Origin: Amphiscolops sp. MND2022
Taxonomy: Eukaryota
Assembly (NCBI GenBank): GCA_964187785.1
Contig: OZ076409.1
Location: 10,604,001-10,668,000, forward strand
Reading direction: 5' to 3'
Length of the DNA: 64,000 nt
Position 1 is the first letter of the stretch. Every line of letters starts with the position of its first letter. Below the pieces are notes generated by a model that saw nothing but the letters and a program-made list of their open reading frames with translations, had not been told where the DNA came from and searched no databases. Both the position numbers and the translations under genes were made by a program. Of this stretch, positions 34,611 through 60,918 are shown in pieces.

Positions 34611-34751
34611 CGGCTTCCTTCCTCCAAGACGGAGTCCACATGTAAGGCGGTGTGATCATCAGGTTACACTAGCTTACAACTGCGATTTTTATTGGTACAA
34701 TAAAATTTAACAAAAACGTTTTTTTTTCAAAAAAAGGAAAATTTAAAATGT

Positions 34752-37700: not shown

Positions 37701-38902
37701 TGTTGAAGTGAAGATTGTGACGTTGTCGGTTACTGCTAAGTTGCGGCAGTTGATATTTATGTCTTTGTCTTTGCGGAAACCCAGTCCTAGAATGTTGTCG
37801 TTGACGTCTGGGATGTAGAAGATGAAATTGTAGTTGCGTCGGAGGTAGGGTATGACGATTGTGAGCGTCATTTTTGCGTGCTTTTTGATACGGTCTTGGT
37901 TTACTGTTTTGAGATTCGTTGTTGTCGGCGTGGAGTAATCGGTGTTGACGAGCGTTGATTTGATGATTGATACCATAGATCCAGTGTCGGCGATGAAAGT
38001 AGTCTTCTGTGAGTTGATTTGGGCGGCAAGGCGGATGCAAATAGGATTCCCAATCGTTGCCGCCCACACGAGTGGGGCTATTCGTTTCCCTGTGCGGCGG
38101 GTGATTGTGCGCGAGATGACGGTTCGATATGTGCGGGCTTTGGTCCAGGCCACTTACACCAGGGCCTACAACGTTTGGCGGAGTTAGCGAAAAACAAGTG
38201 GAAGCGGCAAATTTTCGGTCGTTGTCCGGGCGAGAATGGCTGAATATTGTTGTCGGCTGTGCTGTTTCTTGGCGTTAGTTGCGGCTGGCGTGTATAGGAC
38301 GATGACGATGAGTGCTGTATGGCATAAACGTGCGTGTTGTCCTGAAACGTGTCCTTCGAGTAGCTGTATATGGTGTCGGCTAGTTTGGCGAACTTGTCGG
38401 GTGGCAGGTCCTAATATGCGGGAAGTGAGGAACGCGTTGAGATTGGCATGGCTTGCATAAGGTAGTGTTTGATTACATCGTTGTCCATTGTCAGATGACA
38501 TTCTGAAAGCTTGCGCTGGGTGCGCAAGAGGCAAACTGAGGGCTTTTGTCCATCCAGTGAAATCGTTCCTAATGCTTCTTCAATCAGTTCTGTTTTTGAC
38601 TTCTGGTAGACTTGAGTGATGCTCTCCTTGAGGCTGCTGTAATCTTCAATTTCTATTGGCAAGTTGATTGCGACGTCTTCTGGGATTGCTGCGAGGATGT
38701 GGTGATATTTGGTGGTGTCGTTGGTAATTCCAGCCAAGACAAACTGGGATTCCATTTGTCGGAACCAAACATTCGGGTTCCTGCGGTAGAATGGAGGTGG
38801 CTTCATGGTGACTCTGTTGACTGGTGCGTGTTGTAGTTCTGGCTGAGATGAAGTTGAAGTTGTGGTGTTGTCTCCAGATCCAAATTCGATGGTGTTCTGC
38901 AT
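34752..38902 (-). pseudogene. gag-pol: Frameshifted gag-pol of element B (gag 38411-38902, PR 37512-38153, RT/RH 36314-37606, IN 35558-36121 and 34752-35507 with C-terminal PHD finger)
   Basis: ADTGS protease, WADD (mutated YxDD), TDASG, H...CLTC, DIVGP, ERFHRTL, APYTGP motifs, broken over several frames. Confidence 0.92.
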
Positions 38903-39193
38903 TGTGGTGGTATGGATGATTGTTGGATATTATTGGATATTATTTCTTGCGAATATTCTAGTTTGTTTAAACGATAATCTGGTATTGATATTCGGGTTTT
39001 GTTACTGTTTCGTTTTTCTTCTTGTTGCGTAACTGTGTTTTACTTCTTTTTTTGGGGGTCTCCTTTTTTTCGTTCTCTTTCATACACTTTTTCGTTTTTG
39101 TTTTTTTTACTGGAAGAAGAAAACGAAAGAGGTTTGCGAGACAATGATTTAATGTTTGGAGAAAGTTTTTCTTTTTTTTGGGTGGGATGTTGG

Positions 39194-39211
39194 ATCACGT
39201 CGGGGTCACCA
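39194..39211 (-). other. PBS of element B, tRNA-Trp
   Basis: TGGTGACCCCGACGTGAT, the 18-nt tRNA-Trp PBS sequence also used by avian sarcoma-leukosis viruses. Confidence 0.92.
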
Positions 39212-39212
39212 T

Positions 39213-39385
39213 TTTAGGTTTCTTGGAAAGTCCCTAATTATTTTGCCTAATTCTAAATGAAAATCGCAGCTGTGACAAAGTTTGAATAAAGTAGCTGTAT
39301 TATTCAGATCAAACACAATAACTAAACAACTTGAACAAGAATACATAAAAGCGTAATACTTAGCTTGCATAAGAAGAAGTCAACA
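39213..39385 (-). repeat. 5' LTR of element B
   Basis: Direct repeat of 34438-34610, adjacent to the PBS. Confidence 0.9.
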
Positions 39386-40648
39386 CGTCCTTGTCTCAAA
39401 ATGTTATTCGTGGGTTGCACTTCAGAACGAGTGACTAATTGGTGTTCAGTGGTGATCGCCGTGTCTGTAGTAATTCCATATCTGCGTGCAACTGCTCTAA
39501 ACACTTTGAAAACTAGGGGAGTTTGAGGTTTCTTGATCCGGACTCGAATTCTCGTCGAAGGGGTGGCTAAGGGTGAAGTTTTTCATTCAAAAACTTGGGC
39601 TTAGGTTCTGAGGGTTGTCTGCATCTCCACTGGAACTCCAGTGTAACTTGTTCATTGGCTCATAGACGTTTGAGTTGGTAGCAGACTTTGGACATAGGTC
39701 TATGAGTGGGAACCCTTCACACTAAATCATATCAGTCCTGGGAGAGTACTGGAGTACCAGCCATGTTTAAGTGTTAGAACTCACAGCGCATTAAAAACCA
39801 TCGTTAACAGATAAGGCTAGAGTGAAGTTGGGGAGTTTAGTATCACATGATCATTTCTGGGCATGAGTGGTACTTGCCAAACTCTGTCGGGTTGCTGTCA
39901 CCGGACTTCTATTCTGGAGTGGCATTCGATCGGGGATGGAAAAAATTAGGTCAGTCCAGGTGAGCGTGAAGCGAACGTACTCGCAAGTAGTCAAGCACAA
40001 ACCCAGTAGCTTCCTTGGTCACCTAAAACGGTAGGTTAACCTGTATACATGACTACATTATATTCTTTGTAACGTCTAAGTGAAACTTCCGCCAGCCTGG
40101 TGGCCGAAAACCAAAATTTCGTTCAACATATCGCACAAACATTGGCGAAGTTTTGAATATTAGTGGGAACGTGAAATCAGGACAGACAACCAAAAAGGGT
40201 GAAAAAAGAGTGACCCCAACACCCTGTAGACCCGTATTAACACACGCAAACCCCAGATATTTTGATATTGCTGAATATATTGCACCCCAACCAGAATATA
40301 CACCCAAAAATGCTAATTTGATCCGGAAACTCATAACCTTTGGAATACTTTATTCCCAAGCAAAGATGAAATCAAATCCCGTTATTTGTGATTCTCCTCA
40401 CGATATAAAAAAGGTTCTATGTTACAAAAATCATATTTTTCAAGTGTTGACGAGCAACTAGCGGTCGGGTTTTACGCGTACGCCACTGACTGTGATCTCT
40501 TCCAGAGTTTTTTTCACTTTTTCAGTATGGATTTTCCGACCTTCTCTCGAGTACAGCCTGTGCGCACGGTTATTCGAAGAGTTCCAATCTTTGATTTCCA
40601 TCGTAAAAACACTGAAAAAATTTGGGAAAGAGCAATTTTGAAGTGTGG

Positions 40649-41438: not shown

Positions 41439-43673
41439 TGTCGAACCCAACCGTGTGGGTCGGCTTTGAAGGACCTTTCGAGGTTGACTGTCGGTTTTCG
41501 GTGTCTGTCTTACTTATGACAGCCATCATTAAGTCCTTCAGTTGACTGAACTCATTCTGTAGTTCGTTTATCTTTCTCTCATAACTCTCTTTTATTTCAG
41601 ATAACTGAGACGAGATATCAGAAACCTCGTTGCTATCAGAGTCATTGGCAGAAGACTGAGCCATGTCTGGGTCCGTTTGAATGGGTGTTTCTGATGAGGA
41701 ACTAATAACTCTTCCGCTTCTGAGTTCGGTGCCTAGATCTGGGTTCATAGAGGTGAGAGAAAAGGAATTATGAGTGAAGACTGGATTCTGGATGATTTTC
41801 GATATATTTTACTATTTTGTGCCGTTATTCGAACTCAAATTCACTATTTCTGAACTTGAGATGTAAATGCGATGAGTTTTACAGTAAGACAAGGATACTA
41901 GTAAAGAATGAGAATAGTTAACGAGGATTAAGTAGAGTTCATCCAAATTTCATCGAATAGATATCAATCAAGAAATTACTCAGAGTTGTGAAGGTAGCGT
42001 TATTTACGATGAATAAGAGATATGTTTTCTAGTTCAAATCTGTCGTAATTCGTCCAACTGGACAGTAGCTAATCGCAATTTCGGTCTGTGTAAACTCTAA
42101 TGGCGGTCCAAAATACAGCAGTTCACGTGTCTTTTCGGGCTGGTAAGACGCTAAATCTCTTACCAGCCGACTCTTATTGGCTATTGCCAGTTGGTGCTAA
42201 TTGGTAAGTCACGTGACCGGTGTTGTGAACTGCCGCAAGTTGGCCAAACCACATGGTACATCTACATATGCTAATTATGACTAATCATCACTTTACAATG
42301 TCGCAATTGCCTGCACACAGTGTCATGGTTTCTATAGCAACTCAAATCATTCAATAATGTACTAATTTCAAGTCAAAACAGAGTAAGCTGCATCACAGGA
42401 TGAGAAAACGATGTTTTTCCAACTAATTCTAGCATTAAAATCAATACTTCAAAAGCAAAGATGGAAACGCGATGAATTCGTCAGAATATTTGCTGATTTT
42501 CAAGTCTAGTTTAGCTCTGGATGAAAATGCGATGAATGGTGGTCTTTTAGCTCGAAAATCAACACGATATGAACTGACGATGATAAAAGGATGAACTCGT
42601 CTTCAAAATGAATGATTTCCAGCACAATTTAAATCAACGATGGTAAAAGGATGAACTCTCCTCGAAAATAACTAATTTCCAGCACTAGTGAAATTGACGA
42701 TGAATTCAGGATGAATTCAGCCAATAAAACAGGTGAAACAGCTAATTCTGCAGTGAAGACAAATATACGATGACTTTAGGATGAATACATTCAATAAAAC
42801 AGCAAAATCTAATGAATGAAATTCCAACGATGGGTTTAGGATGAACTCAACTGAAAATTCGGCTAGTTCTAACGTAAGTCGAACTAGCGATGAATTTGCG
42901 ATGAACTAGTGATGAGTTAATCTAATAAAACAGATATCCAGCACTTCACTCTTTTTTAGGATGAATTAAGGATGTACTTTCTCATTTCTTGTAGTTTCTG
43001 TTCAGGACGATGAAATATAGATGTGTTATGCTCTTTTTAAGAAATGAGAAGCACATTGAAGGTTAATAATCACAAAACGACGATGAGTATAGGATGGCTT
43101 TCATGCATTTTAAAGTCCCGTGAGATCCGCTGATGGATCACTAAATAAAATCAAATATATGTCCCAAATTTTGTTCACCCGCAATCTTGGCGATGTGATT
43201 GCGATGAACCTTGATAATATAGCACCGTAATTTCACTAATAGATCAAGTTGTAGGATCACTAAGTCCGCTGATGGATTAGTGATGAACTTTCCTGAAATT
43301 CGTCACGACTACAAGTCCTGAGGCGAGGGAGCTAGTAGAAGTTACAGATTCCATTATTTCTACATCTCTCGGTCCAGTCTGACCGGAAGACTTCTCTCCC
43401 TTATCGTGACAAACCAATATTGAATAAGATAGCACATTAAAAGCTATTGGCAAGATCATTTGTGCGGACACCGGAATTAGAGCGCTCAGTATTAAGTAAA
43501 TATATATAGCTCAAACTCAGGGGGGATAGGGATTAAAGTACAAGTAACGTAGGGTTGCTCACAACCATGGCTCTTATTATATGACATCATATTGCCCATA
43601 TCTAAGTACATAAGACATAATATTTACATTACAAATATTTAGTAGATTATATTTCCATCATGCTGGCATGACA
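41439..43673 (-). repeat. 3' LTR of element C (2235 bp); includes a copy of the first 103 gag codons (ORF 41425-41748)
   Basis: Near-identical to 58485-60720 (5 substitutions and 1 indel spotted by eye); preceded on the minus strand by GGGGAG. Confidence 0.97.
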
Positions 43674-44199
43674 CTCCCCGGGGCGGGATTTGGACTGAGA
43701 GTGCAGGGACCAAATGCGCAGAGGATGGTTGTCTCGGCGTTGGCTTCGACTGATCCTTCGTTTGGTTGGGGAGAAAATGGCCTTCGTTAGTTCTGAATTG
43801 GCATGTCCTTCGTTTGTTCTGTCCTGTGAGAGCTTCTCTGAGAAGAGGACCTTCGGTAATCGTCTTTTCTGGCATCATCCTGGGTGATTTCGGTTAAAAT
43901 TTTCGACGCGGCAACTCTAATTCTTGGTCCATCGAATGTCCGCTGACCTGCATTTTATTGGTTGTCATGCTTTTGACGGGAGTTTCGGCTGGTTATTTTC
44001 GGTAGAAGCTGATTTCTCGGAGAAAAGTTTCCCTCCAAAACGCCTACGCTGAGTAAACAATTCGATTAGCTTCACTGACAAATTGGCAGCGAGTCAGGGA
44101 TGAATGAACGATGAATTGTTTGCTCAGCGAGACACTGATGCTGTTTAGCGGAATGGCTGGCGCCGTTACTTGTTTACTCGCGATGAAAGGAGATGAATC

Positions 44200-44284
44200 G
44201 TTGCCATAGCAACTGTCAAAAGTTACTTCCGCTGCTCGACTTTTGAGTGAAAGAGAAAAGAGATGAATTCGTCGCCATAGCAAC
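44200..44284. promoter_or_regulatory. Two RFX X-box-like palindromes upstream of the antisense gene
   Basis: GTTGCCATAGCAAC (44200-44213) and GTCGCCATAGCAAC (44271-44284). Confidence 0.55.
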
Positions 44285-44797
44285 TGTTGCTCGATCTGAT
44301 TGGCTGAGACTGAACTTATAACTGAAGGAAAATACAACCGGTTGTCAGCAGCATTCTCATCCATAAATCATCCTCCATTCAAGTCGGTTTGAAAATCGCC
44401 ACGATTTCCTTTGCGCGTTTCCGCTCAACTTCGTCGGTATAGATCTGAGACTGGCAGCTGTCAACAAATCAAATACTTGAAGTTTTTGTCAAGTCCTGGG
44501 AGGGGACGATCCATTTTCAGAGAAGGCTTGAGTTGGTTGTACTGGGAAGAAAAGTGATGTCAGTATTTGAAATCGGAGAATTTTCATCGATTTTTCATCT
44601 TCTGAATTCAAGTATTTGATTAACATGGCATTCAAGCTGCGCCGCTTTTTGAAATCTTCTATTGAATTTGTTCTTCTGTAATCATGGTTGATCAGGCCAT
44701 TTAATTACTGATCAAATTCTCTGCTTCTGGATTCTTCGATTTCTTTCCTTCTTTCACCGTCTTCCATTCTTTTCAGATTGTTTTGCAATTTTTCGCG

Positions 44798-47700
44798 ATG
44801 TCGGATATCAACTCCATCTATTCGTTACCGGAGACCGAGGCCACAGAAAGTAAGTGCACTATTTTTTCTCTTCTTCACAAACGGGCCGGGGAATAATTAG
44901 GAATTGAAGGCGTGTCTTGGTTTTAGCGGACTCCGTTCACTCTGTCGGCATAATTTCCGAACTGACTACTTTGCAGACAGTTCCGCCTCAAGATGCTCCG
45001 ATCCCTGCAGCATCTCACGCACCTCAGTATCAACCTGAGCAGCAAACTGAACAGGCCCCTAACGTCCCGTATCTTCCGCAGTGTAAGTACTATCCTTCCA
45101 TTCTTCAGTTCAGTCTTCGAATCCCTCATATCTCATCCTTACTCTGTCCAGTAGCTGACTCCTTTTCGTATGGTGTTTCAGACCACTACCCCTGGTATGC
45201 TTCCCTAGGCAGCATCACCTTCGGGTGGTATGACCGCCACATGCGGGACATGCTGCGGGATAGCATCCAGCAGTACAGTGAGTTTGTCAATTTCCTTTTC
45301 ACTTCTCTAGGCTATCGTCCGAACACTCCGATGTGATTCCGATGTAAACATCTCATCTGCATGTAGTGTCCTTTGCGGTCGATTACCCATGTAATTCACC
45401 TTCGAGATGAATTTAGGATGTGTCATGGACATTCACAGCTCTTCATGACTGACTCGCTGTAAATCCCATTTTTGAAGATGAGTTTTGGATGTATTCTTCT
45501 CCGGTTTTCTTTCTTCGCGCGGCGTACGCGCTCTTTCTTCTCTTATCGTCGTCGTCCAGTAACTGTTTCTTCTTTCAGGCCCCACACCGATCCACGCACC
45601 AAGGCCTCGTCCCATCAGCTATTCCGTAGGAGTAGGGACGAGTGATTTCGCCGCAACTAGTGCTGATGCTAGCACTCAAGGAGGGCCTCCTCAACTTGAC
45701 TTGTCCTCGTTCCTTCAGGACTTGTCATTCGGGAGTGTAAGTTCTCCTGTCAGGCAGGCGCCAGTGTCTGTACTGTCGCCAGTGCTGAGGGGTTCTTTCG
45801 CCGCTAGTAGTCCTCCTCCTGCTCGTATCACTCTCGACGCTGCTGTGAATGCTGTTGTCGATTGCGTGGATGCAGTCACCGATGCCGTTGTCGATACCTC
45901 TGATCGAGCAGTCCAGGCCGTTGTGGAAGTCAGTGAGTCCTCCACCTTCCATGATCCTCCTGTTGAGGAACCTGTCATCGTTGCCTCTTCTTCTGTTCCT
46001 GCCTTTTCAGTCAGCGGCACTGATACACTTGGTGATGCTTCCGTGAGTACTGCCGGCGGTGCTGAGACCCTACTTGAAGTCCCTGGTGACTTCTCGTCCG
46101 ACAGCCTTCTGCCTGCTGAACCTGACCGAGAATCTGCTTCTCCCAGTGCTGCTCTCATGTCGACCGTGGCTTCTCCCATGGGACCCAGTCTACTGGATAG
46201 TGATGACGAACCAATCGCGTCCCGTCTGCCAGGTTAACTAAACAGCTTTAAACTGGTGAAGTATCTGATCAGTAGATTTTTCATTCATTTCCTTCTTCGC
46301 TTTTGCTTTCACTAGCATTTTTCACGTTTTTCTTCTTTTCTATCCATTTTTCATCGTTCTTCTGTTTTCACTATATGGTTTTCTGCAGTTTTCCATTTTC
46401 CATCACATTCTCATCGTCAAAAGTCGTTGAACAATAGTTTTCGCTCTCTAGTCCTTTTTAGAAATTTCATCTCTTTTACATCTTTAAAATTTTCTCTTTT
46501 CGGTTTTCGCTATTTGTCGGTGTTTTCTTTTCAGTTTTCATCTCTTTTTCATCGTTAAGTTGTTTTCGCTCTAAAATATCTCAATTTTTGGTTCAAAGTC
46601 GTTCTATTTATCTCTTTTCCATCGTTCAAGTTTTTCATTCTTTAAGGTTTCCATTTTTCATTCTGGTGGTGTGCAAAATGCATCTCTTTTTCATCTTTTC
46701 GTTTTCTTCGTTTTTCGCTTATATTTCCTGATGAAAATATTATTTTACATCATTTTTTCATCACTCCGGGTGACTTTTGGAAGTTTGCGGTGGTTTTTTC
46801 ATTTTTCAGTTTTTAAAGATTATTTTAAGATGATCTTGGAATTTTGTGGGAACGTGGTCGTTTTTAGTGGATGTGCTATGTGTTGGCATGTGATTATTTC
46901 TGTTTGTAGGGCGAAAAGTGATCAAGTCATGGTGGTTTTCTCATGAATACTGTGGGCTTGCACTGGGCTATGCACGAAGTCATCAATCGCGGCTATCATT
47001 CGTTCGATGTTTACTGTGCAAGCGTGATATCAATGTTGGCAGCCGTGGTATCACTACTTTCATGGAGCATTGTCGTGGGCTCCGTCACCATCGTTTGGAC
47101 TGTCTGATTCGTTTGTTTCGGGATTTACCGTTGCGGCGACGCGACGGGTCATTGATGAGTAATGAAGAGAGTGTGGAGTGTAGGAGCAGCCTGGGCGGTG
47201 CAATGGTGCCGTTCATTGAGACGTGCCCCTCCTTTAGTGTACTGGAGGTGTTTGAGTTGGAAGCAGCTGGACGACCTGTGTGGGGGGACGAGGAGGAAGA
47301 GGATCTATTGTGTGAAAAGACGGTGCATCTGTTCGTGTGCCTGGTTATTGACTCAATCTATCGTGGGTGTCAGTTCGCCAGCGTAACGAGTTTGTGGGAG
47401 GTGATGGTTGCGTCAGAGCCGCAACATGCCTCTCTTTTCGGTGTTACTTGCGAAGTGAATGACGTGATGGTAATTCGTATTTCTTTTTGTTTTTTGTTTC
47501 ATGAAGGTTCGTGTAGATGGAAAAAAAATACATTTAGTGGGTGGTTTTCCATAGGTAGTTTTGAAGCTTGGGTAGGGGGGATTTTCAACTATTAATTGTG
47601 TCGGGTTATTTTTAAGCGGATAGTGAATTAATGTATAGTAAAGTTGATGTTTGTTTTTAGAGTGTGGTTCTACTGAGTTTGTGGCCGTACGCGATGAAGA

Positions 47701-49575
47701 GGCTAATCACTCTGTGGTCTAACTGTGGGTTCAGTAGCTTTCATGTGGCTGTTGGGCAGGGGCGCGTGACTGGCACGGTCACAATGTGTTCTCTAGAAGG
47801 GATCAGTCAGTACTGTGTCTTCAGTTTTTGTCTGTCTCAGGATTGGGAAAAACGAGTTGTCACGTGGATGATTAACATGTGGTGTTGTTTGCTTGGAGAA
47901 CCTGTTCCACTTGGACTGTGTTGCGATGCGTTGCCACAGCTGGGTGGACTGTTCCAAGCCGCCACTGGCGTTGGGTCACTGGAGTTGAAGACGCTGTCAT
48001 TGTGTGAGATCAGTCGGACAATTGTGGACGTGGGAGGGCGGGCGCTCGGCGGGACTGATATTCATGTGGTGCTGAATCATCTGCAGAAAAGACTGAAAGG
48101 ATATGTCAGGGATCCTCTGTTGTTGAGCTGCCCTCATCTGTTGCAGGTCGGTGTAGTCTTCCGCTTTTATTTGAGTGTTACTATGAGTTGTACTCTTTGT
48201 CTGTTTCTGTTGTTTGTATATTGGTAGTAGTTTGTATTGTAATATTTTGTTTTATCTATGTGGAGCTTGTTATGTTTTGTTTAGGCGATTTTATCCGGGG
48301 AAGTCTACGTGTGGACTCTTGCTGATGTGTGCGATGAATTACGTGCCAATTGGGCAGAAGTGCTGTGTCTAGTTCGATTCGCTTCGGGAGACGGGCCAGT
48401 AGATGCGTTGGATCTTACTTTGAGGGTGGAGTTCGGGATCCCAATCAGGCTCCGGGCACTTAGTATGGTCTATCGTGCTTGTTAGTATGTTGTATACTTA
48501 CCGGGTGGGAAGTTTCTGTAGTTGGCCGTTTTTACGTATTCGAGTGTTTAATCAATTCGCATTTTTCGGGAAGGGAACGGGGGGGGGGTTAGTCCGATTA
48601 TTTACTGTGTATAGAATTGTTGTGTTTTTCATTTCAGTAGTGACGTCGTACGAAAAGAGTTTCGGGTCTTCATCATTGCGGAGTTGCTACTGGGCGATCG
48701 AGAGTGCATTCTTTGTGAAACGCCTGCTGACTCTACTGGTTGACGAAGAGAGCCTGCCCACTGATCTGGATATCCGTGGGTGGTTGTTTGTGGATGTAGA
48801 CAGTTATGTTGTGTCAGCGACTAAGTTACAAGCCCTTATCGCGAGTTTCAGCTCGGATGAGAATTTGACGGAAGATGTGGCTGTGTATGAAGAGGATGTG
48901 TCCCGAGTGCCTAATTTCTTATTGTCTATCGTCAGGAACGTATTATTGCTACCAGGGATTCGTGACGATCTTGCTTTCGTGCGAAGTGTCTTTAGTTCAC
49001 CCAGACTGGTTTGTGTGGCGGAAACTGATCTTGTGGCGGAAATTCGCAATTTTACTGGTTTACTTGTGGAAATGGGGCGGATCAGTTTAGTCGAACAGGA
49101 TCGAATGGAGCTCGGATTTCTGGAATTTATAAGGGCTTTTCGGTGCGAGCCTAGGCCAGCTGGGGCGACTGCCGAGTATTCAGCCGTTGATCTGTTGCGT
49201 TGCTGTTCCAGTCGCGGGTCACAGAGTCTGTTACAACTTGTCTTTTGCCTGGGAGGGGTGGTGCAGAGCACTTGCAATACCATATGCGAAGGGATCGGGC
49301 ACCTGCCGAGCGATGTCATGAGCTGTGTGTGTGCAGTAATCTCTGGTTATTTGTCTGCTAATCATGTGCGAAGTTACGGTAGTGTCAGTGGGCCACTGAT
49401 GGAAGAAGTGATGGAGTCGCACAGAAGGCTCGTCGATCTATCAGAGATTACAGAGGGCATGTTGTGGGACGACGTCGGTATCGTGGCTGGGGAAGATTAT
49501 CGTCTCCAGTTATATGCTAGTCTTGGTTACGATGTGACCGGGGAGCGGGCTGCCAGTCCCGAGATTGGAAACTGA
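44798..49575 (+). CDS. Antisense accessory gene of element C; predicted exons 44798-44849, 44927-45082, 45152-45277, 45579-46232, 46910-47469, 47661-48146, 48285-48480, 48638-49575 (1055 aa if exon 4 joins exon 5; otherwise a 330-aa gene ending at 46237 plus a second gene)
   Basis: All seven introns are GT-AG with pyrimidine-rich acceptors and matching phases (1,1,1,1,0,0,1). No in-frame stops. C-x2-C-x16-H-x5-H zinc finger in exon 5. AATAAA at 49676. Confidence 0.8.
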
Positions 49576-49675
49576 CTTATTAACTGTTTATGTTGTTCAT
49601 TGTTTTGCTATATAATTTGTTGTATTTACATATTAGTGTAGTTATTCATATGTTGGGAGACCCATGAAAAAGGTC

Positions 49676-49681
49676 AATAAA
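49676..49681 (+). terminator. Probable polyadenylation signal of the antisense gene
   Basis: AATAAA 100 nt after the TGA at 49575. Confidence 0.55.
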
Positions 49682-52198
49682 TGGAAAGCACAGTAATGAC
49701 CATAGTGCGAATGATACAAATCCAGATGCTACGGCGGAAAGATCGGTAGTAGTGTGTTTACAACATTAGTTATTTTGGTGCCCAACAGCTGTTTTTCTTT
49801 TGAGTTGTTAGTGATAGTTACAGAGGATATTAAGTACGTGTAAATCAACAAGTTCGTCCAACAGTTCACTTGAAGCATTGTCTTCGGTATTTTTGTATCA
49901 TAGATCATCGGTCGCGCATCGCGTTTATGGTGTTCATCGTTATTACATCTCGTGGTAGTGTAAGTAACTCGTCAGCGTTTGATCTTTGATTTTTCATCTC
50001 ATTTTCATCACGTTTTCCTCGGTCGACCAAGCGACGTCGTGAAAACTGTTTTTGTCATCGTTTTTACATCTTTCGGTGCGTCAGAAACATTGCATGTTGT
50101 TACATGTGGTTTTTCTACGTATTTCATCATTTTTTCATCTTGCGTTTGATTTGAGCACTTTCGTGCGTTTTTTGCTATAGTTCATCGTTTTTGCATCGCA
50201 AGTTTGTCTTGTTCAGTTTCTGCTCATTTTGCTGTATAGTTCATCTTCTTTTCATCGTGCGTTTGAAATGTACGGATTTTTGCGTGTTTTCGATGTTATT
50301 TGGCTATAACGTAAGCGGGGGTTGCATTTTTCGTGTCCGGAGGAAATTTTTATTAATATTGCGGTGTTTCGGATTGTTTTCTTCATGTATTTTAGCGTTA
50401 TACGGTTATAACCATTTGTCGTGTTTTTGAATTTGCATGAATTTTATGGTACATGTGTTTTAATCATCGTCGTCATGTTTCTAATTTGTCAACTTCGGAA
50501 CGTCATCGCATGTATTTTTAGTTCGAATTCTGGTGACCGCCGCTTGCGTGGCAGTCGAAAATAAGTTCACTCAGCAGTGGTACTGATAGCCTGTAGGCGT
50601 GCAAGGTACTAGTGGCTTCAGTCCAGAGCTGGGTGAGTGGAGCTGCTCCGCTCCTTTCAGATAAATGGAATCTCGTAGTTTCGGGCTATATATAGTCTAT
50701 ATGTCATTTTTTCGGTCGGTTGTTTGCCATTATTCGTCGAAATGGGTTTGTCCATTTGACGGTCAGTCCGATCAATCAATGTGATTGACATCTACGGTTA
50801 TGCATGTGTCCAGTTTTAGACTATCTGTTTCTTGTATTTGCATGTATGGATGGTTACATGATGTGCTCTTTTAAATGGGTTGCCCCATTATTGACATGTC
50901 GTTATATGTTCGGTGGTAGTTTCATGTTTTCTAATTTTATTTTCGTTCATTTGGACAGGGCTTTGTCGTCACAAAGCCCCTACAAAACTAACTGAGAATC
51001 CACTAGCCGCTGGATAACCAACGCAGCAAGCTTCATCCGAATATGGTTGTGAGCTCCCCGCCTCAACTAACCAGCACTCTTTTCAGAGAAATGCCAGCCA
51101 GCACGAAGGAATGATTTTAGTTTTTCGGTAGGGGTGTTTTGTATTTTATGAGCTGATGTTTACTGGGGGGTGCTCACTCCTTTATTAGTTTTGTAGGTGT
51201 TTCGTCAGTTCTTATATTTTGCATGTAAGTTAGTAGACTTCATGTATTTTCGATTGTTTGTTTCATTTTTATTCGTCTAGGTTCGGATGGTTTTGGTGTG
51301 AATTGCATATATTATCTCATTCATTTTTGAACGGTACATGTATATTTCCGTGCGTTGCTCATTTGTATTGCATGTAGTTTGGAATTGTTAATTGCTTTCG
51401 TGACGTCATTGATTTGGCAGGTCTTTGAACTTTACATGTATTGATCATTTCATTTTTGTGTCGCATAATTTCGTTGCATGATTCGAAATAAGGTCGGTTG
51501 TTTTTTATCGTTTCGTGGAGTTACATGTTGTTTGCGAATTAGCTGATTTATTGTGATGTTATGTTGATGGTGTTTCCCATCACAAAGAGGTGTTGGTAAG
51601 TCATTTAATATTTTCGAATTTCCATTTAGACTAAATTCATCGTTTTGACATCCTCCAGCGAAGCTAGAGTATTGTGTCAGGTTAACGATAAATTCGGTCG
51701 CGATTTGATGGTAGTGTCCATCACAAATTCATCTCGTTAATTGATTTCATGTAATTTATGAATAATTGGATCGAGTTCATCGTTATTTCATCCTCTGGCC
51801 GAGCTAGAGTCTTATGATAGCATGAACGTGAGTGCGTTCGCATTCTGATGGTATTTCCCATCTCAAATGCATCGTTAGTAAATATTGCATGTTGATTGGT
51901 CTATTTTTTGACTGAGTTCATCACTTTTTCATCTCTCGTGTGTCTGAGTTAAATTTTCGTGTGGTTTCATCCTTTTTTCATCTCAAATTTTGTGTGTTGT
52001 TTTTTCTGGTTTTTTGATCGTTTTTCATCCGTTTTACATCTCGTTTTGTTTGTATGCGGTTTTCATGTGATTTTTAGTAACTTTTCATCCATTTTACATC
52101 TTCATGTACTTTTTAAGTTAAAATTGCATGTAATTCGTTCGTTTTTGTGATTTGTTCATCCGTAACACATCTCAGATTTAAAGTGAAACTTTTCTTGG

Positions 52199-55100
52199 CT
52201 AAATCGTTACGTCTATTTTGTTGGTCTTTCTCAGTGCGTTTCTAGCTGAAGTAATCTCATGAATGAGGAAGTCTGGATACGTTTTCGGTGTAGGGTTCTC
52301 ACGTAACCTGTACCTACTTTGATTTGATCTAGACGGTCTAGAACTCATCCTTTCTTCATTTTCGTTTTGCGTGTTTGTCTGTTGTGACTGGTTTTCGTGT
52401 TGTTCGTCTCTCAGAGGTACTCTTATCCTACTTTCATCGCGGGGAGGCGGTAGAATAATTTCTTCTCGCGTTCCAAATCTAACTGTAGGTGGTCTAAAGT
52501 TGTTGTGATCAGTTTCTACTTGCTGATAGTCTATCCTCGTGGTTATTTCTGGTGGAATTACTTGTGGAGTGTGTTGTTCTTGTACCCGAGGAATTGTTTC
52601 TTCTGAAGGCTCTTTTTCGACCAAGTCTTGATCTAGATTGTCATTCTCATCCTGATCTACTTCGTCGGTCATCGGAATATTCGAGTCGAAAATGTCCGTG
52701 TCTTCAACCCTTTCGGTATCTGGGTAGAGATGTTTGGACATGTTGATGTCGTCAATCGGAAATTCCGGTTTGAACAATCTCAGTCGCATGCGATGTACGC
52801 ACTGAGTTTGGTGTGTGCCTACTTTGCGGATGATGTAGTTGCTATCGGATAGCAGTTTAATCACCTTGTACGGTCCTTTCCAATGGAAAGTTTTAAACTC
52901 TTCTTTGCTTCTCTGAGAGTCGTACTTAGGGTCTAGTAGGAACACAAAGTCATTCACCTTCAGTGGCTGTGCTCGTGCTTTTCTATCATAGTACGTTTTG
53001 TACTTGTGATAGGCGGAAATGATGTTGTCTAGATTGTCTCTGAAGATAAAATTCATTTTGTCTAGAATTTCGTTCACGTCTTTGCACTTTGTTTCAGCCG
53101 GTTTGTTTGCGTTTCGGAATTGCAGATCTAGTGAGTTGTATGGTGTTCTTCCGTGGAAAATTTCGGTTGGTGAGCATTTCAGTGAATCATGATACGTTGT
53201 GTTATGGGCCATGATTGCTATGTCGACATAGCGGTCCCATTGTGGTCTGTCTGCGTTTACACTAATCTTAAGGATCTTTTTCAGTTTCGCGTGCGTTCTC
53301 TCCACCATGCCTATTGTCTGCGCGTGCTTTATCGTGGCATGGGAGATGTGAATATTAGCCGCTTTCGCGATTTCAGACAGAAGTTCAGCCGTGAACGCCG
53401 TGCCTTTGTCGGTCAGAATGTGTTTGGGCACATACGCGTGTTTTGTGAAGATCGACAGTAGTCCTCTGACTACGGAATGTGTGTCAGGTCTCTTCAGCGG
53501 AACGGCGAACAGGTAGCGCGAAAAAACGTCAACAGCCGTCAGAATGTGTGTAAAACCGTTCGATGCCGGGAGTGGACCAACGATGTCTATTTCCAGCAGG
53601 TCTTCTGGTCCGTCGCACGGGTCGTAGATTTTTTGTAACGGTGGACGTAGTTGCGTTTCTTTTACACTTTTAGACTTCATGCAGTTTTCACATCCGTCAA
53701 GGACTTTTTGAACTTTATAGGCTAAGTTAGGAGAGTAATATCTTTTACGAAGTTCATACAACATTTTCTTTAAACCAGGGTGTCCTTGTACCGGGCTGTT
53801 ATGTAGAGTCCTAATTATTTTCAAAATACAGTCTTCAGGAACGACTAACTGCTTATGAGACTCTAGTCCCGTGTGGTCAAAAAACTGTCTGTACAAGACA
53901 CCGTTTACAACTTGTAGGCGTTTTCGATTTTTGTACAACTTTTGAAAAAACTGGTCTTGCATGTTAACTGGGTGTTGCAAAATTTCAGTACCTTCTAAAA
54001 ATCTAATCATTTTTTGGATAACCCAGTTATTTTTCTGGACCTGAATTAGATCGATCCCCTCGGCGGGGCTAACCTGACTCATTACCGGGTGTGATAATGA
54101 TACTTTACGGATGAATTGCGAGAGTTGAATCGGCTCGTCCACGTCTGTGAGGCGGTACGTCAGATGGTTGTCAGTCGCGAAGTCATCTGAGGCCGCAGTT
54201 CTCTCACAGTTGGTGAACTTCATCCCTTTCCCATCGTCATGAGCCACGTCAGTGCCAGTTGCCAATTTCATCTCTTTGACATCCTTCTGGCGTTTGCATC
54301 TGAGTGGTTCGCTCGCGGGGAAGTAATCAGGCTCGTCTTCCTCCTGTTTTGGTGTACGGGAGGCGATGTCGATCTCGATCCTGTGAATTGGAATAGTATC
54401 AGTCAATTTTAAATGTACACGGTCTTCAGGTCTAATCTCAAGCCGAGATAAGTAATCCGCTGCGGGATTTTCAACTCCTGGAACATGTGCTAATAGAAAA
54501 TTGAACTGAAGGGTTTGATCGCAAAAGTTCCAAAGTGAAGGCGGGATATGCTTCGCCTGGAAAAATCTAGTCAAGGCCTTATTGTCAGTCATAACAATGA
54601 TGGGTTTTTTCGCACCCCACAAAATGTGGCCAAATTCATCGAATGCAAAGTGCATAGCTAAAAACTCTTTGGCATACATTGTTAGAGACATCTGGCCGCC
54701 CTGAAATTTCTTAGAGCCAAATGCAACAGGGGCGTATGTATGTTTGACTGACGGGTCTGCATAATCCTCGATTAACAACACATAGCCTGCAGCGTGTTCG
54801 CTGGCGTCACACATGATTACCAGTTGTTTATCTGGTAATGGCAATTTCAGAGACACTTTTGTTGCTTTTAACAAACTTTCATTAATTTCAAAAATAGCAT
54901 CTTTATGTTGTTGGTTCAGCTTGAAAGGGACGTCTTTCTTGATGAGTTCCTGTAAACAACAAGTTTTATCAGCTAGACGGGGAATGTAAGACCTGTAAAA
55001 GTTCACAAAACCAAGATAACGTTGCAACGCTTTCACTGAATTGGGGGGTTTCAACTTCGTTAAATAGTCTGTTACGCGTTTTTCAATGGGAGCAATACCA

Positions 55101-57292
55101 GTGCTAGAAATGGTTTTTCCCAAGTACTCAATTTGTTTTTGTCCAAATTCACATTTACTCATGCTAAGTTTAAGACCAGCTTTTTGCAATTGTTGAAAAA
55201 CAAGTTCAAGGTTGGTAATCAATTCTTCGGGTGAGTGTGCTGCAATTCCAATATCGTCAACGTATTGGGCACAGCGGTCCGCTTTGACCAGGGGGTCCAA
55301 ATACTCACGGATTACTCCTGTAAATGCTGACAAAGAACGATTAAGACCTTGTGCTAGACGTAAAAATGCAAAAGTTCTAGATCCAAAATTAAACGATAAC
55401 AGTTGGACAGATTGCTCATCGGCCATTGGAATGCAATGGTAGGCCTGGGAACAATCAAGTTTGCAGAAGTACTTTTTCCCGGCCATGTGTTGGGCAGCGT
55501 CAGCAATTGTTGTTACGGGATGATTGTGCTCACCGTAATCGTTTTTGATCAGGTGGTTTATTCTTCTCAAGTCAACTAAAATCCTCAATTTACCATTAGG
55601 TTTACGCTGAGCAAATATCGGGGAAGAGTATTTGCTGTGAGGCAAAGTAGTTATAATCCCGTACTCTTGCATTAGGGCTAACTCCACGAGCAAATCGTCC
55701 TTCAAATTTGTCGGAGTCGGGAGACTTTGTGAATAAACAGGTTCTTCATGTTGAGGTGTTAACTTAACTTTAAAATCAGTGTTCATGCCAATATCAAAAC
55801 GGTGTCTAGCAAAAATGGAGTTGTACTTTACCAGCAACTCCTCTACCTGTAACCGTTGAGACGGAGTAAGAAGCGAGTCGTCCCAGTTGAAGTTCTTCAG
55901 GAAGTTCATCCGTTGTTCATCGGATTGGGACGGGTCAAGCTTCTCGAGCTCTCGCAGTGCCAGAATCTCATCATAAATCCGTCGCTCAATTGCGTTGAGT
56001 TTGTCTGGCTCACTGCACGTCTCGGGAGTTGGGTACCACTTGGTTGACTTCATTTCAGGGTTCACAAACAGTTGGTTGATCACTGCTTCGGCTTCATCTG
56101 GATACTTGGTGATCAAGTTCAAGTGTTCCACTGGCATGGGCGTGATGTTTGCCGCCTGGTGTGGTGTCGGGATGCGAAAGTGTGCCAGAGTGGTGTTGGC
56201 TTCAAGTGTGTACGTGTGGTTGTTTGGGTTGGTGACCTGGATTGTCGTCTTGCCCTCGTCTAGGTCAACCAAAGCTGGAGAAACAAGCAAACACGTCTTT
56301 CGCATGAATCCAGGTGAGCCCTCAACTGTACCAGTTGTAAGTGAGATGTCCGCGTCACTGTGGACCTGTATCATCACTTGATGGAGAGGAGGGATCACTG
56401 TTCTAGTACTGGAACACAAATCAATTAAACCAGTTTTGAATCTGTTGTTCTTTTGCTGTCTAACTTGCATGGACATCATGTGATTAGGGAAGTGGACAAG
56501 GTGGTTTTTGATGTCTAAGTTGACTGAGTACTTTTCAAAAAAGGACATTCCAATTAAAATTGTTCCCATTGTTGGAAGGATTAGGAACGTTTCTTCGAAT
56601 ACTTTTCCAGCAACGTAAAATCTAAGTAAGACTTGCTTACGCACTGGGACTAAGTTCCCGTTTGCTATTTGAATTTTGAAATTCGGAGGGGGGAATTCTT
56701 GAAGGATGGCTTCTGGATGAGCCGTTGTTATTTTTCGCAGTTCGGCTTCAGACATTGCACTTTGTATTGCGCCTGTGTCTAAAAGTGCGCTGTTTTCGTA
56801 TTTGTCAAACTGAAGAGGGACGTACAGCATTTTATCTTTCTTGTTTAAATGTAAAGTGGGACTGAGAACGTGAATTTCTGTTTTAATTGCATGTTTTTTA
56901 GTTTTTGAAACGTTAATACTACTCTGTTTTGCATGTTTTTTAATACTAAGCCGTTTGTCGATTGTTGAGTGTGAAGTCGAGTCGTCGTCTAGATGGTGGG
57001 TTTCCATCTCTTTGGCATCTTCCACCTGCCTCATGGTGTTTGGTTGCCAGTTCATCGTTTGTTCATCGTTGATTTCAGCGAGTGGAGAAAAACGGCTGCC
57101 GTTGAGTTGACTTGCATTTCTCATCGCTTTTTCATCGTTGGAAAGTCTTCGCTGATAGACGTCGTCAGCTTTTGGTCGATTGTCCAGTGAAGGCTGCCAT
57201 TTCTTCATTGGACGGTCGTGTGTAGTCGGTTGAGTCGAAAGTCGTTGGTCGCGCGTTGTGTTTCTAGCGGGCGGAAATCGTGGCGGAATCAA
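52199..57292 (-). CDS. pol: Pol of element C (PR, RT, RNase H, IN), probably expressed by -1 frameshift from gag
   Basis: LLDTGA, YVDD, CDASEHAAG, H...H...CENC, DIVGP/TDKG/VER, WKGPY; uninterrupted 1697 codons. Confidence 0.97.
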   Translation of the reverse strand: MIPPRFPPARNTTRDQRLSTQPTTHDRPMKKWQPSLDNRPKADDVYQRRLSNDEKAMRNASQLNGSRFSPLAEINDEQTMNWQPNTMRQVEDAKEMETHHLDDDSTSHSTIDKRLSIKKHAKQSSINVSKTKKHAIKTEIHVLSPTLHLNKKDKMLYVPLQFDKYENSALLDTGAIQSAMSEAELRKITTAHPEAILQEFPPPNFKIQIANGNLVPVRKQVLLRFYVAGKVFEETFLILPTMGTILIGMSFFEKYSVNLDIKNHLVHFPNHMMSMQVRQQKNNRFKTGLIDLCSSTRTVIPPLHQVMIQVHSDADISLTTGTVEGSPGFMRKTCLLVSPALVDLDEGKTTIQVTNPNNHTYTLEANTTLAHFRIPTPHQAANITPMPVEHLNLITKYPDEAEAVINQLFVNPEMKSTKWYPTPETCSEPDKLNAIERRIYDEILALRELEKLDPSQSDEQRMNFLKNFNWDDSLLTPSQRLQVEELLVKYNSIFARHRFDIGMNTDFKVKLTPQHEEPVYSQSLPTPTNLKDDLLVELALMQEYGIITTLPHSKYSSPIFAQRKPNGKLRILVDLRRINHLIKNDYGEHNHPVTTIADAAQHMAGKKYFCKLDCSQAYHCIPMADEQSVQLLSFNFGSRTFAFLRLAQGLNRSLSAFTGVIREYLDPLVKADRCAQYVDDIGIAAHSPEELITNLELVFQQLQKAGLKLSMSKCEFGQKQIEYLGKTISSTGIAPIEKRVTDYLTKLKPPNSVKALQRYLGFVNFYRSYIPRLADKTCCLQELIKKDVPFKLNQQHKDAIFEINESLLKATKVSLKLPLPDKQLVIMCDASEHAAGYVLLIEDYADPSVKHTYAPVAFGSKKFQGGQMSLTMYAKEFLAMHFAFDEFGHILWGAKKPIIVMTDNKALTRFFQAKHIPPSLWNFCDQTLQFNFLLAHVPGVENPAADYLSRLEIRPEDRVHLKLTDTIPIHRIEIDIASRTPKQEEDEPDYFPASEPLRCKRQKDVKEMKLATGTDVAHDDGKGMKFTNCERTAASDDFATDNHLTYRLTDVDEPIQLSQFIRKVSLSHPVMSQVSPAEGIDLIQVQKNNWVIQKMIRFLEGTEILQHPVNMQDQFFQKLYKNRKRLQVVNGVLYRQFFDHTGLESHKQLVVPEDCILKIIRTLHNSPVQGHPGLKKMLYELRKRYYSPNLAYKVQKVLDGCENCMKSKSVKETQLRPPLQKIYDPCDGPEDLLEIDIVGPLPASNGFTHILTAVDVFSRYLFAVPLKRPDTHSVVRGLLSIFTKHAYVPKHILTDKGTAFTAELLSEIAKAANIHISHATIKHAQTIGMVERTHAKLKKILKISVNADRPQWDRYVDIAIMAHNTTYHDSLKCSPTEIFHGRTPYNSLDLQFRNANKPAETKCKDVNEILDKMNFIFRDNLDNIISAYHKYKTYYDRKARAQPLKVNDFVFLLDPKYDSQRSKEEFKTFHWKGPYKVIKLLSDSNYIIRKVGTHQTQCVHRMRLRLFKPEFPIDDINMSKHLYPDTERVEDTDIFDSNIPMTDEVDQDENDNLDQDLVEKEPSEETIPRVQEQHTPQVIPPEITTRIDYQQVETDHNNFRPPTVRFGTREEIILPPPRDESRIRVPLRDEQHENQSQQTNTQNENEERMSSRPSRSNQSRYRLRENPTPKTYPDFLIHEITSARNALRKTNKIDVTI

Positions 57293-58794
57293 AAACCCTG
57301 ATTTATGTCTTCATCAGAGTAGGTTTCTTGATCTTCTTCTTCGGTGACTGCTTGCATAGGGTTCATCGGCTTTTGTTGTCGTTTTAAGTCTTGTCTTCTA
57401 GTTCTGTTGTCATCTTGTGAATTCGTTGCGTATGGAATCTTTCCATATGCAGAACTGCTTTCTTTAAGGACACGTCGTCTGCAATCCCTTGCTGAGTGGC
57501 CTGTGTAACCGCAAATCTGGCAGACCAATTTTGGATTGTATTTCGGCTTATCTGGATCGGCTGCTTTCTTCATTGGGATTGCATCCTCCTTCTTTATGCC
57601 GTTCGCTTCGTCTCGTTGTCGGGCGCGACATTCCGTTTTGCGGTGTCCTGTCTTTCCGCAGTAGAAACATTGTCCTTCAAATCGTTTTCGTTCTGTCGGT
57701 TGTGCGGTCGTCGTTGTTGTTGTAGGCTTCGTCGTTGTAATCGTAGGTGGTGCTGAGGAGGTGACCGCGTTGAATGGTTGGATTGCCGTAGGTGGCGCGA
57801 CGTACTGCTGGTACTGGTATTTTCGCATTAGGTAGGTTTTGATTTCCTCTGGGGAGCTCTCTTCTTTGTTTGCCATGGTGAGCTCTTGTTGAATCTCGAC
57901 TGGCAGTTTTCCAAACAGGAACATTTTGATTATTCTGTCGGCCTCATTGCCGAAGGCTTGTTTGGCAGTCTTCTTGAGATTTTTGAGGAAATCGCCGAAT
58001 GTTTCTGTTGTGGGATCATAGCGTGCTTGATCCCATTTGTAACGGGCCACTTCCTTTAGATCCTCTTTTGCAAATTCTTTTCTGAAGAGGTCGAGTACGT
58101 CCTTTAGTGTTGTCATCGGCGTTATCTGGATGGATTGCCAGTATTCTATTGCGTCATCTCTCAAAAGGCTTTGAAAGAAGTGTAGTTTGTTCTCCTCGGT
58201 GATTTTGTTGGCAAGCGGGCTAAGGTGGTTGTGGAGAAGGTGTTCAAATTCGACGAATTTGTCTTTTTGGCCTCTGAAATTTGGCACGTGTGTCTGCAGA
58301 AGCTTCGTGTTGGTGGTTGTGTTTTTGATCCGTTGGGGGATCGTCTCGATTGCATTGAGCAGTCGTTCCTCATTGCTTCTGGGGGTTGATTCTCCTTCGT
58401 CTGAATCGTCTTCTTGGTAACTTCTGAAGTTGGTGAAGCTGGTGGTCGGGCGGTTGGAGCGGGTTTCTGTAGCTCCTGTCACCATGTCGAACCCAACCGT
58501 GTGGGTCGGCTTTGAAGGACCTTTCGAGGTTGACTGTCGGTTTTCGGTGTCTGTCTTACTTATGACAGCCATCATTAAGTCCTTCAGTTGACTGAACTCA
58601 TTCTGTAGTTCGTTTATCTTTCTCTCATAACTCTGTTTTATTTCAGATAACTGAGACGAGATATCAGAATTCTCGTTGCTATCAGAGTCATTGGCAGAAG
58701 ACTGAGCCATGTCTGGGTCCGTTTGAATGGGTGTTTCTGATGAGGAACTAATAACTCTTCCGCTTCTGAGTTCGGTGCCTAGATCTGGGTTCAT
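57289..58794 (-). CDS. gag: Gag of element C, 501 aa, two CCHC knuckles; start codon inside the 5' LTR
   Basis: CFYCGKTGHRKTEC and CQICGYTGHSARDC; capsid-like HVPNFRG...LHFFQSLLRDDAIEYW; N-terminal coiled-coil-like segment. Confidence 0.96.
   Translation of the reverse strand: MNPDLGTELRSGRVISSSSETPIQTDPDMAQSSANDSDSNENSDISSQLSEIKQSYERKINELQNEFSQLKDLMMAVISKTDTENRQSTSKGPSKPTHTVGFDMVTGATETRSNRPTTSFTNFRSYQEDDSDEGESTPRSNEERLLNAIETIPQRIKNTTTNTKLLQTHVPNFRGQKDKFVEFEHLLHNHLSPLANKITEENKLHFFQSLLRDDAIEYWQSIQITPMTTLKDVLDLFRKEFAKEDLKEVARYKWDQARYDPTTETFGDFLKNLKKTAKQAFGNEADRIIKMFLFGKLPVEIQQELTMANKEESSPEEIKTYLMRKYQYQQYVAPPTAIQPFNAVTSSAPPTITTTKPTTTTTTAQPTERKRFEGQCFYCGKTGHRKTECRARQRDEANGIKKEDAIPMKKAADPDKPKYNPKLVCQICGYTGHSARDCRRRVLKESSSAYGKIPYATNSQDDNRTRRQDLKRQQKPMNPMQAVTEEEDQETYSDEDINQGF
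57292..57298 (-). promoter_or_regulatory. -1 ribosomal frameshift slippery heptamer G GGU UUU
   Basis: CAG GGT TTT TGA at the gag end; pol lies in the -1 frame; GC-rich sequence follows. Confidence 0.8.
58473..58484 (-). other. PBS of element C, tRNA-Leu-like, inside gag coding sequence
   Basis: ...TTCGACA|TGGTGACAGGAG directly after the LTR; one mismatch to the tRNA-Leu(CAG)-type TGGTGTCAGGAG. Confidence 0.65.
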
Positions 58795-60720
58795 AGAGGT
58801 GAGAGAAAAGGAATTATGAGTGAAGACTGGATTCTGGATGATTTTCGATATATTTTACTATTTTGTGCCGTTATTCGAACTCAAATTCACTATTTCTGAA
58901 CTTGAGATGTAAATGCGATGAGTTTTACAGTAAGACAAGGATACTAGTAAAGAATGAGAATAGTTAACGAGGATTAAGTAGAGTTCATCCAAATTTCATC
59001 GAATAGATATCAATCAAGAAATTACTCAGAGTTGTGAAGGTAGCGTTATTTACGATGAATAAGAGATATGTTTTCTAGTTCAAATCTGTCGTAATTCGTC
59101 CAACTGGACAGTAGCTAATCGCAATTTCGGTCTGTGTAAACTCTAATGGCGGTCCAAAATACAGCAGTTCACGTGTCTTTTCGGGCTGGTAAGACGCTAA
59201 ATCTCTTACCAGCCGACTCTTATTGGCTATTGCCAGTTGGTGCTAATTGGTAAGTCACGTGACCGGTGTTGTGAACTGCCGCAAGTTGGCCAAACCACAT
59301 GGTACATCTACATATGCTAATTATGACTAATCATCACTTTACAATGTCGCAATTGCCTGCACACAGTGTCATGGTTTCTATAGCAACTCAAATCATTCAA
59401 TAATGTACTAATTTCAAGTCAAAACAGAGTAAGCTGCATCACAGGATGAGAAAACGATGTTTTTCCAACTAATTCTAGCATTAAAATCAATACTTCAAAA
59501 GCAAAGATGGAAACGCGATGAATTCGTCAGAATATTTGCTGATTTTCAAGTCTAGTTTAGCTCTGGATGAAAATGCGATGAATGGTGGTCTTTTAGCTCG
59601 AAAATCAACACGATATGAACTGACGATGATAAAAGGATGAACTCGTCTTCAAAATGAATGATTTCCAGCACAATTTAAATCAACGATGGTAAAAGGATGA
59701 ACTCTCCTCGAAAATAACTAATTTCCAGCACTAGTGAAATTGACGATGAATTCAGGATGAATTCAGCCAATAAAACAGGTGAAACAGCTAATTCTGCAGT
59801 GAAGACAAATATACGATGACTTTAGGATGAATACATTCAATAAAACAGCAAAATCTAATGAATGAAATTCCAACGATGGGTTTAGGATGAACTCAACTGA
59901 AAATTCGGCTAGTTCTAACGTAAGTTGAACTAGCGATGAATTTACGATGAACTAGTGATGAGTTAATCTAATAAAACAGATATCCAGCACTTCACTCTTT
60001 TTTAGGATGAATTAAGGATGTACTTTCTCATTTCTTGTAGTTTCTGTTCAGGACGATGAAATATAGATGTGTTATGCTCTTTTTAAGAAATGAGAAGCAC
60101 ATTGAAGGTTAATAATCACAAAACGACGATGAGTATAGGATGGCTTTCATGCATTTTAAAGTCCCGTGAGATCCGCTGATGGATCACTAAATAAAATCAA
60201 ATATATGTCCCAAATTTTGTTCACCCGCAATCTTGGCGATGTGATTGCGATGAACCTTGATAATATAGCACCGTAATTTCACTAATAGATCAAGTTGTAG
60301 GATCACTAAGTCCGCTGATGGATTAGTGATGAACTTTCCTGAAATTCGTCACGACTTACAAGTCCTGAGGCGAGGGAGCTAGTAGAAGTTACAGATTCCA
60401 TTATTTCTACATCTCTCGGTCCAGTCTGACCGGAAGACTTCTCTCCCTTATCGTGACAAACCAATATTGAATAAGATAGCACATTAAAAGCTATTGGCAA
60501 GATCATTTGTGCGGACACCGGAATTAGAGCGCTCAGTATTAAGTAAATATATATAGCTCAAACTCAGGGGGGATAGGGATTAAAGTACAAGTAACGTAGG
60601 GTTGCTCACAACCATGGCTCTTATTATATGACATCATATTGCCCATATCTAAGTACATAAGACATAATATTTACATTACAAATATTTAGTAGATTATATT
60701 TCCATCATGCTGGCATGACA
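58485..60720 (-). repeat. 5' LTR of element C (2236 bp)
   Basis: Direct repeat of 41439-43673; TATATATA at ~60547-60555; contains the GATG-N7-GATG array. Confidence 0.97.
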
Positions 60721-60918
60721 CGCGGGGTAAAAAACCAGGATGTTACAAAATTGACTGCATATTTGTGAAAAACTTGGTGTTGATAGCAGGCGGTGACCCA
60801 TCCTGATTGTCAACTTGATTGTAACCATTTTATAGTAACTTTCATTCCACCTGTTGGTTTCTTTCACAAATATTTAACAAGATATTGTTTGAAACAAATA
60901 TCTTCTTCGGCGAGCCTT

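Follow-up and report, generated by a model that had tools for sequence, protein, structure and literature searches.

The 64,000-nucleotide stretch of the Amphiscolops sp. MND2022 genome analysed here (contig OZ076409.1, positions 10,604,001 to 10,668,000; hereafter the window) contains a Ty3/Gypsy LTR retrotransposon that carries a gapped DNA motif, GATG-N7-GATG, in its non-coding regions and in its pol gene. In this element and its relatives, selected, family-specific and strand-independent dyads span the LTRs, introns, spacers and permissive segments of Pol. The GATG dyad is probably bound by the BED-finger protein that the element itself encodes; this protein would cover cognate copies and probably keep them open. 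The evidence also tilts slightly toward a family-private code, in which a disarmed hAT BED finger would read the dyad, and a swap of the cargo gene encoding that finger would lead to rewriting of the element, including codons of Pol. The copies of each family are likely tagged for the regulator that the family itself encodes.

The host element and its copies

Two LTRs with TG..CA ends, a short target duplication and the gene order gag, then PR-RT-RH-IN identify the window element as Ty3/Gypsy (Table 1). Its own family, termed the focal family, comprises at least 150 copies with RT 99–100% identical, as counted from the RT matches scored across the 1.07-Gb genome. The gag gene starts about 370 bp inside the 5′ LTR (window 58485-58854), and its overlap with pol (57289-57310) contains a slippery-type heptamer, GGGTTTT, at which a −1 frameshift would lead from gag into pol. 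In one copy (L017), about 4.4 kb of pol is duplicated internally. The motif sites of the 5′ LTR mostly form an array with a spacing of about 60 bp, and are mostly oriented opposite to those of the internal arrays.

A second Gypsy element occupies window 3-14443, where a 3297-aa gag-pol is immediately followed by a 1519-aa sense ORF without a Pfam match. This element has no GATG dyad, and its top untrained dyad, AGCA-N3-GTGC, scores slightly above the null. At window 34438-39387 there is also a broken Gypsy-like element of small size, whose 175-bp repeats are 95% identical.

Table 1. Features of the window element (positions within the window; aa, residue of Pol).
Feature	Position	Strand	Remarks
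Intact Ty3/Gypsy LTR retrotransposon	41439..60721	-	19.3 kb; 5-bp target duplication CGCGG
5′ LTR	58485..60721	-	2237 bp; 17 GATG-N7-GATG sites
gag with zinc knuckles	57289..58854	-	start within LTR; end at GGGTTTT heptamer
pol	52199..57310	-	1703 codons, PR-RT-RH-IN
Site DEKAM	57122..57136	-	aa59, pre-protease leader
Site DEQTM	57053..57067	-	aa82, pre-protease leader
Site DAKEM	57005..57019	-	aa98, pre-protease leader
Site HPEAI (seventh pol site)	56705..56719	+	aa198, inside protease; overlooked in the initial annotation
Site DEQRM	55907..55921	-	aa464, between protease and RT
Site DVKEM	54269..54283	-	aa1010, RH-IN linker
Site DGKGM	54221..54235	-	aa1026, RH-IN linker
Motif array, 10 sites	51555..52171	-	directly past pol
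Motif array, 7 sites	49906..50256	-	directly past cargo stop codon
Predicted antisense spliced cargo gene	44923..49575	+	between pol and 3′ LTR
Conserved cargo exon segments	44923-45099, 45181-45279, 45578-46234	+	
Motif array, 5 sites	46401..46762	-	cargo intron ahead of BED exon
Cargo BED-finger exon segment	46909-47469	+	
Cargo segment, RNase-H-like topology	about 47661-48146	+	
Cargo conserved exon segment	48637-49575	+	
3′ LTR	41439..43674	-	99.7% identity to 5′ LTR; 17 GATG-N7-GATG sites

Motif sites in pol

The initial annotation had described six motif sites in pol, all in one codon phase and encoding D-x3-M peptides, and each of them is present as described. It had also placed all sites outside the catalytic cores. 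This is correct for the sense sites, but the opposite-strand site HPEAI falls within the Pfam protease span (166-259). Nor does DEQRM lie in a permissive PR-RT linker, as had been proposed, since its segment can be aligned in all 13 of the proteins compared. Additional sites in other copies encode DEERM in the tail of the integrase and DAIPM in gag.

The number of sites greatly exceeds chance expectation. Synonymous shuffles of pol, a check that the initial annotation had suggested, keep the protein and the codon counts, and they gave a mean of 0.48 sense sites and a maximum of 4 in 20,000, compared to 6 observed. Shuffling the order of the codons gave an expectation of 0.056, and D[VADEG]xxM peptides occur 7 times in pol compared to 0.69 expected. 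The spacing is equally specific: the element has 70 occurrences of GATG-Nk-GATG at k=7, none of the other values of k between 0 and 24 gives more than 4, and window 1-41438 has no occurrence of GATG-N7-GATG. When the 46 sites outside pol and gag are read in the three sense phases, 8 contain a stop codon in the phase used in pol, compared to 32 and 39 in the other two. The single codon phase of the pol sites can thus be attributed to the stop codons that the other sense phases would mostly create, and it was ruled out as a separate signal.

Related families and their motifs

A homologue search yielded relatives in tiers of 86%, 73–77% and about 57% pol identity, and D-x3-M peptides are enriched only in the 86% tier. 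Relatives without the array might have been expected to lack the linker segments as well, but the linkers are kept in the absence of a GATG array, which rules out that they exist only as hosts for the motif. Most of these relatives have another motif instead.

Four motif classes, corresponding to four cargo groups, can be distinguished. GATG-N7-GATG is the top dyad in all 10 focal-family elements examined and in all 5 elements of the sister family P2. AYGACYG-N7-CRGTCRT characterizes P5 and P4/P4b; it emerged unprompted from P4 (score 29, null about 11) and has 2012 matches genome-wide compared to 21 for the control. P5b and P4c share TGAYGW-N13-WCRTCA, and P13 has GCCK-N4-MGGC (score 22.7, null up to 11.9). 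The untrained single-element scores of P5 (16.4) and P5b (13.2) are near the null (8.5–12.4, with 14.6 for an unrelated Gypsy element), and support for these two motifs comes from their transfer to held-out families. In two P15 elements with cargo, no clear dyad was found. A candidate P15 palindrome, ATGAATTCAT (L055, L056, L058, L059; one site in the pol leader), was weak and was not accepted, and the untrained palindrome spectrum was uninformative. The palindromes of P5 and P5b (L027-L048) fit a common 23-bp frame, RAYG-N15-CRTY, and a GAYG-like half-site can be seen in every motif except that of P13.

The excess in pol was re-tested with matrices trained only outside pol and compared to synonymous shuffles. 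All 10 pols lie above the shuffles (P<0.001 to 0.034), with 9 sites compared to 1.97 expected in the focal family, 9 to 2.89 in P2, 5 to 0.35 in P4b, 4 to 1.70 in P5b (P=0.034) and 3 to 0.86 in P13 (P=0.006). With one element per group and without P2, 20 of 25 sites lie beyond the enzyme cores, which occupy about 59% of pol (P=8e-5). The pol sites are mostly placed where the protein tolerates them.

Selection at the level of DNA

For a test of conservation, copies were mapped onto real reference copies and only those above 80% identity were retained, giving 21 of 33 for P2 and 11 of 33 for the focal family; L017, with its duplication, was excluded. Since these copies are related and the cells are not independent events, the following cell counts overstate independence. 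In P2, 141 of 142 cells retain the silent T of the Asp codon and 140 of 142 the silent G of codon 4; taken together, the silent motif bases are retained in 281 of 284 cells, compared to 76% at control codons (other GAT, NNG). In the focal family, the same bases are kept in 61 of 61 and 60 of 61 cells, compared to 82% and 86% at controls. Third positions adjoining the sites are also fairly conserved, at 86% and 90%, the former being the value for P2. Residues 2 and 4 of the encoded peptides are variable, and residue 4 in P2 is found as T, P, S, L, K, A, Q or R.

Silent bases that are fixed amid varying amino acids indicate that selection acts on the DNA, and this bears out the earlier suggestion that nucleic-acid-level selection has shaped permissive protein segments. 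On the same grounds, reading D-x3-M as a protease site was rejected.

The antisense cargo gene

The gene predicted on the strand opposite to gag and pol has exon segments and splice-type borders that recur in ten other copies. PF02892 (BED) matches 6 of 10 cargo variants with a best E of 0.0017, which falls under the Pfam curated cut-off. This weak match corresponds to the N-terminal BED zinc finger expected of a hAT-type cargo. Across 12 aligned BED exons, two Cys and one His are invariant and a second His is nearly so. Four positions ahead of the zinc-ligand His, the four motif classes have T, N, S and E.

Profile comparison connects the cargo via those of P2, P4 and P5 to the cargos of P13 and P15. 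The P15 cargo (profile link E 2e-11) has hAT-derived look-alikes in the Atlas, scoring 0.87–0.92 (FAM200, ZBED5 and ZNF862 clusters), while cargo exon B gave no usable Atlas match. One cargo exon model (pLDDT 47.5) has the order helix, three strands, helix, and reaches Hermes at Z 3.6, rank 29; among models with pLDDT 59 and 47.5 there was no Foldseek hit at E<=0.001, and the best VIA Z was 5.1. Comparison with solved structures gave no match at E<=1. In an alignment of 12 exons, no invariant Asp ends strand 1 or strand 4, where hAT motifs place the catalytic Asp residues of a DDE triad. The BED match and the Atlas look-alikes suggest that the cargo is a hAT-transposase-like BED-finger gene, probably disarmed.

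Searches for outside relatives were less productive. The BED exon yielded no homologue of greater length, and a search of representatives returned 88 matches, nearly all of them short cargo-like pieces. Among 30 hAT loci of the same genome, the best match to the cargo profile reached only E 0.0064. No close relative lacking the cargo, which was wanted as a negative control, was found.

BED exons only 57–73% identical to that of the window element accompany pols whose RT is 99% identical (L001-L020; window 44923-49575), and the cargo is thus swapped like a cassette. The GATG dyad is constant across these cargo variants, which share a predicted recognition helix.

Motif and cargo in P4c

The pol tree places P4c as sister to P4/P4b (IQ-TREE 100/100), whereas the trees of both cargo exons place it as sister to P5b (FastTree 99-100; cargo from two P4c elements). 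A P5-type site in the RH-IN linker, within the peptide MIQIISRH, is present in 9 of 11 P4/P4b copies and in none of 13 P4c copies, which retain the peptide and lack the site through silent differences. About 25 codons further on, a P5b-type linker site is present in 12 of 13 P4c and 0 of 11 P4/P4b copies, in this case with amino-acid differences. P4c has another P5b-type site, in the protease, through silent differences. The LTRs of P4c and P5b align in short pieces only. In P4c, which represents a single event, motif type tracks the cargo gene and not pol, and the swap would have proceeded by loss of the P5-type site and gain of the P5b-type sites. The part that silent changes played in the gain and loss of pol sites further supports selection on DNA.

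Distribution of the motif

The initial annotation had supposed that the motif must cover the whole element. Coverage is in fact uneven, with gaps of 3158, 2064, 1784 and 1638 bp over the cargo core, integrase, gag and RT/RH. Without the pol sites, the gap between the arrays would be 6.7 kb. Spacing is near-helical in the focal family: distances between sites of the same orientation cluster at 48-49, 59-61, 69-71, 79-81 and 110 bp (P=0.0009, distinct distances), and pol site spacings of 48, 69 and 48 match these focal-family clusters. In P2, 10.5-bp phasing of the spacings is absent.

The dyad of P2 (L021-L026, L037-L040) occurs as inverted pairs, GATG-N7-GATG-N9-CATC-N7-CATC, which lie 24 bp apart start to start in 37 cases. 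P2 also has a third linker site, DDKTM. Occurrence in both orientations and as palindromes suggests that double-stranded DNA is the form recognized.

A single strict version of GATG-N7-GATG has 3628 matches genome-wide, compared to 20 for a reversed control. The CpG observed/expected ratio of the window element is about 1.0, and this lack of depletion gives no support here to methylation-specific silencing as the process being countered.

Proposed function and alternatives

In the mechanism favored here, the cargo would be spliced and translated from the antisense strand, and its product would bind the dyad through two paired BED fingers. It would probably oligomerise across sites and so coat cognate copies, with the pol sites bridging the otherwise 6.7-kb stretch between arrays. 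The outcome may be activation or anti-silencing, leaving the copies transcriptionally open; this is the least certain step and is drawn by analogy with VANC and TnpA.

The phased spacing along the full length of the element, pol included, could also suit a scaffold for the cDNA or integration complex, in which a cargo oligomer would wrap helically phased sites and protect, carry or steer the cDNA instead of acting on transcription. The undepleted CpG is compatible with such a role, as is the description of hAT transposases, in the available text of PMC10368747, as oligomers that engage several short repeats. However, motif sites show no crowding at the ends of the LTRs on which integrase works, and the dense arrays inside the LTRs, next to the cargo gene and within its intron would better fit promoter-like roles, making a scaffold unlikely. 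It also appears rather improbable that the sites are bound by host transcription factors, a different one adopted by each family, with the cargo unrelated to the motif. Sites for host factors are common in LTR elements, a clear motif is missing in P15 despite its cargo, and a joint swap of LTR and cargo could mimic a link between them. Against this, the pol-internal sites of P4c changed with the cargo though its LTR barely aligns to that of P5b, and the focal motif stays constant over divergent cargos with a common predicted recognition helix.

The pol sites might finally be by-products, either of a D-x3-M protein signal such as protease cleavage or of neutral duplication or template switching. 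They do lie near expected polyprotein junctions, and the non-coding arrays bear traces of tandem repeats. This very improbable reading is largely refuted by the fixation of silent bases where residues 2 and 4 vary, by the unrelated peptides that the pol sites of other families encode, by the silent gain and loss in P4c, and by the pol sites themselves, which when judged by eye have no likeness to the array units beyond the motif.

If the family-private code is true for this animal LTR-retrotransposon radiation, a retroelement would encode a sequence-specific regulator made from the enzyme of another transposon class, and its families would form a natural series of paired BED fingers and sites. 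The four finger/motif pairs may be used to test how BED fingers read DNA, and the dead-transposase cargo gains a candidate target sequence. A testable role is also offered for antisense ORFs and arrays of Gypsy elements, which have long lacked an explanation. The sites concerned are dispersed by the thousands across the host genome.

Comparison with known systems

Self-encoded, sequence-specific regulators with co-evolving motifs are known from plant DNA transposons (VANC, TnpA). In the openly accessible literature surveyed, there was no case from an LTR retrotransposon and none with sites in Pol. Two reports on LTR elements (PMC13547354, PMC12844716) name accessory proteins and, in their available text, describe no cognate-motif system.

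Among Gypsy elements, the closest likeness is to plant Retand, which according to the available text of PMC11963269 has antisense TRP28 ORFs and family-specific tandem arrays of unknown function. Both systems have a long region between pol and the 3′ LTR, an antisense ORF with predicted DNA binding, and family-specific arrays. They differ in the ORF itself, as no match to TRP28 (PF04195) was found in the window element, and neither a pairing of motif and protein nor pol-internal sites are described in that text.

The BED domains of the Hermes transposase offer a model for recognition. In the available text of PMC10368747, two such domains bind paired 4-bp sites cooperatively next to an AT-rich flank, and N67 makes base contacts. 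The 4-bp core, the paired sites and the AT-rich flank have their likeness here, and the offset of N67 would correspond to the cargo residue four before the zinc-ligand His. Hermes is unlike the cargo system in being catalytically active and in binding transposon ends, at subterminal repeats with the core AAGT (PMC10368747). In this genome, 97 kb of sequence surrounding the C-terminal domain at 30 hAT loci, with termini partly covered, contains no GATG-N7-GATG.

Spm TnpA is described in the available text of bioRxiv 10.64898/2026.08.24.746577 as a transposase-derived regulator of clustered cognate motifs in its own family, and the words “retrotransposon” and “LTR” are absent from that text. The cargo resembles TnpA in its transposase-derived nature and in its cognate motif clusters, to which binding is predicted. 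TnpA serves its parent DNA transposon and binds the termini, whereas the cargo would act for a retroelement, over the full length of that element.

The VANDAL/VANC system of Arabidopsis acts in anti-silencing, and both motif binding and demethylation have been demonstrated for VANC (PMC5735166, available text). It shares with the window system an element-encoded accessory protein and co-evolving, family-specific short motifs in tandem arrays, and the Gypsy families described here likewise accumulate such motifs in arrays. The VANC21 motifs are non-coding 9-mers, and the coding probes lacked the motif in the same text, while the window element has gapped dyads with seven sites in pol. The cargo appears BED/hAT-like, whereas VANC is reported as MAIN-like (PMC13547354, available text), a difference judged by description. 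VANDAL is a Mutator-like DNA transposon, and the window element is an LTR retrotransposon. The window system works like VANDAL/VANC and Spm/TnpA but stands outside both, as it belongs to another element class and has sites in coding sequence.
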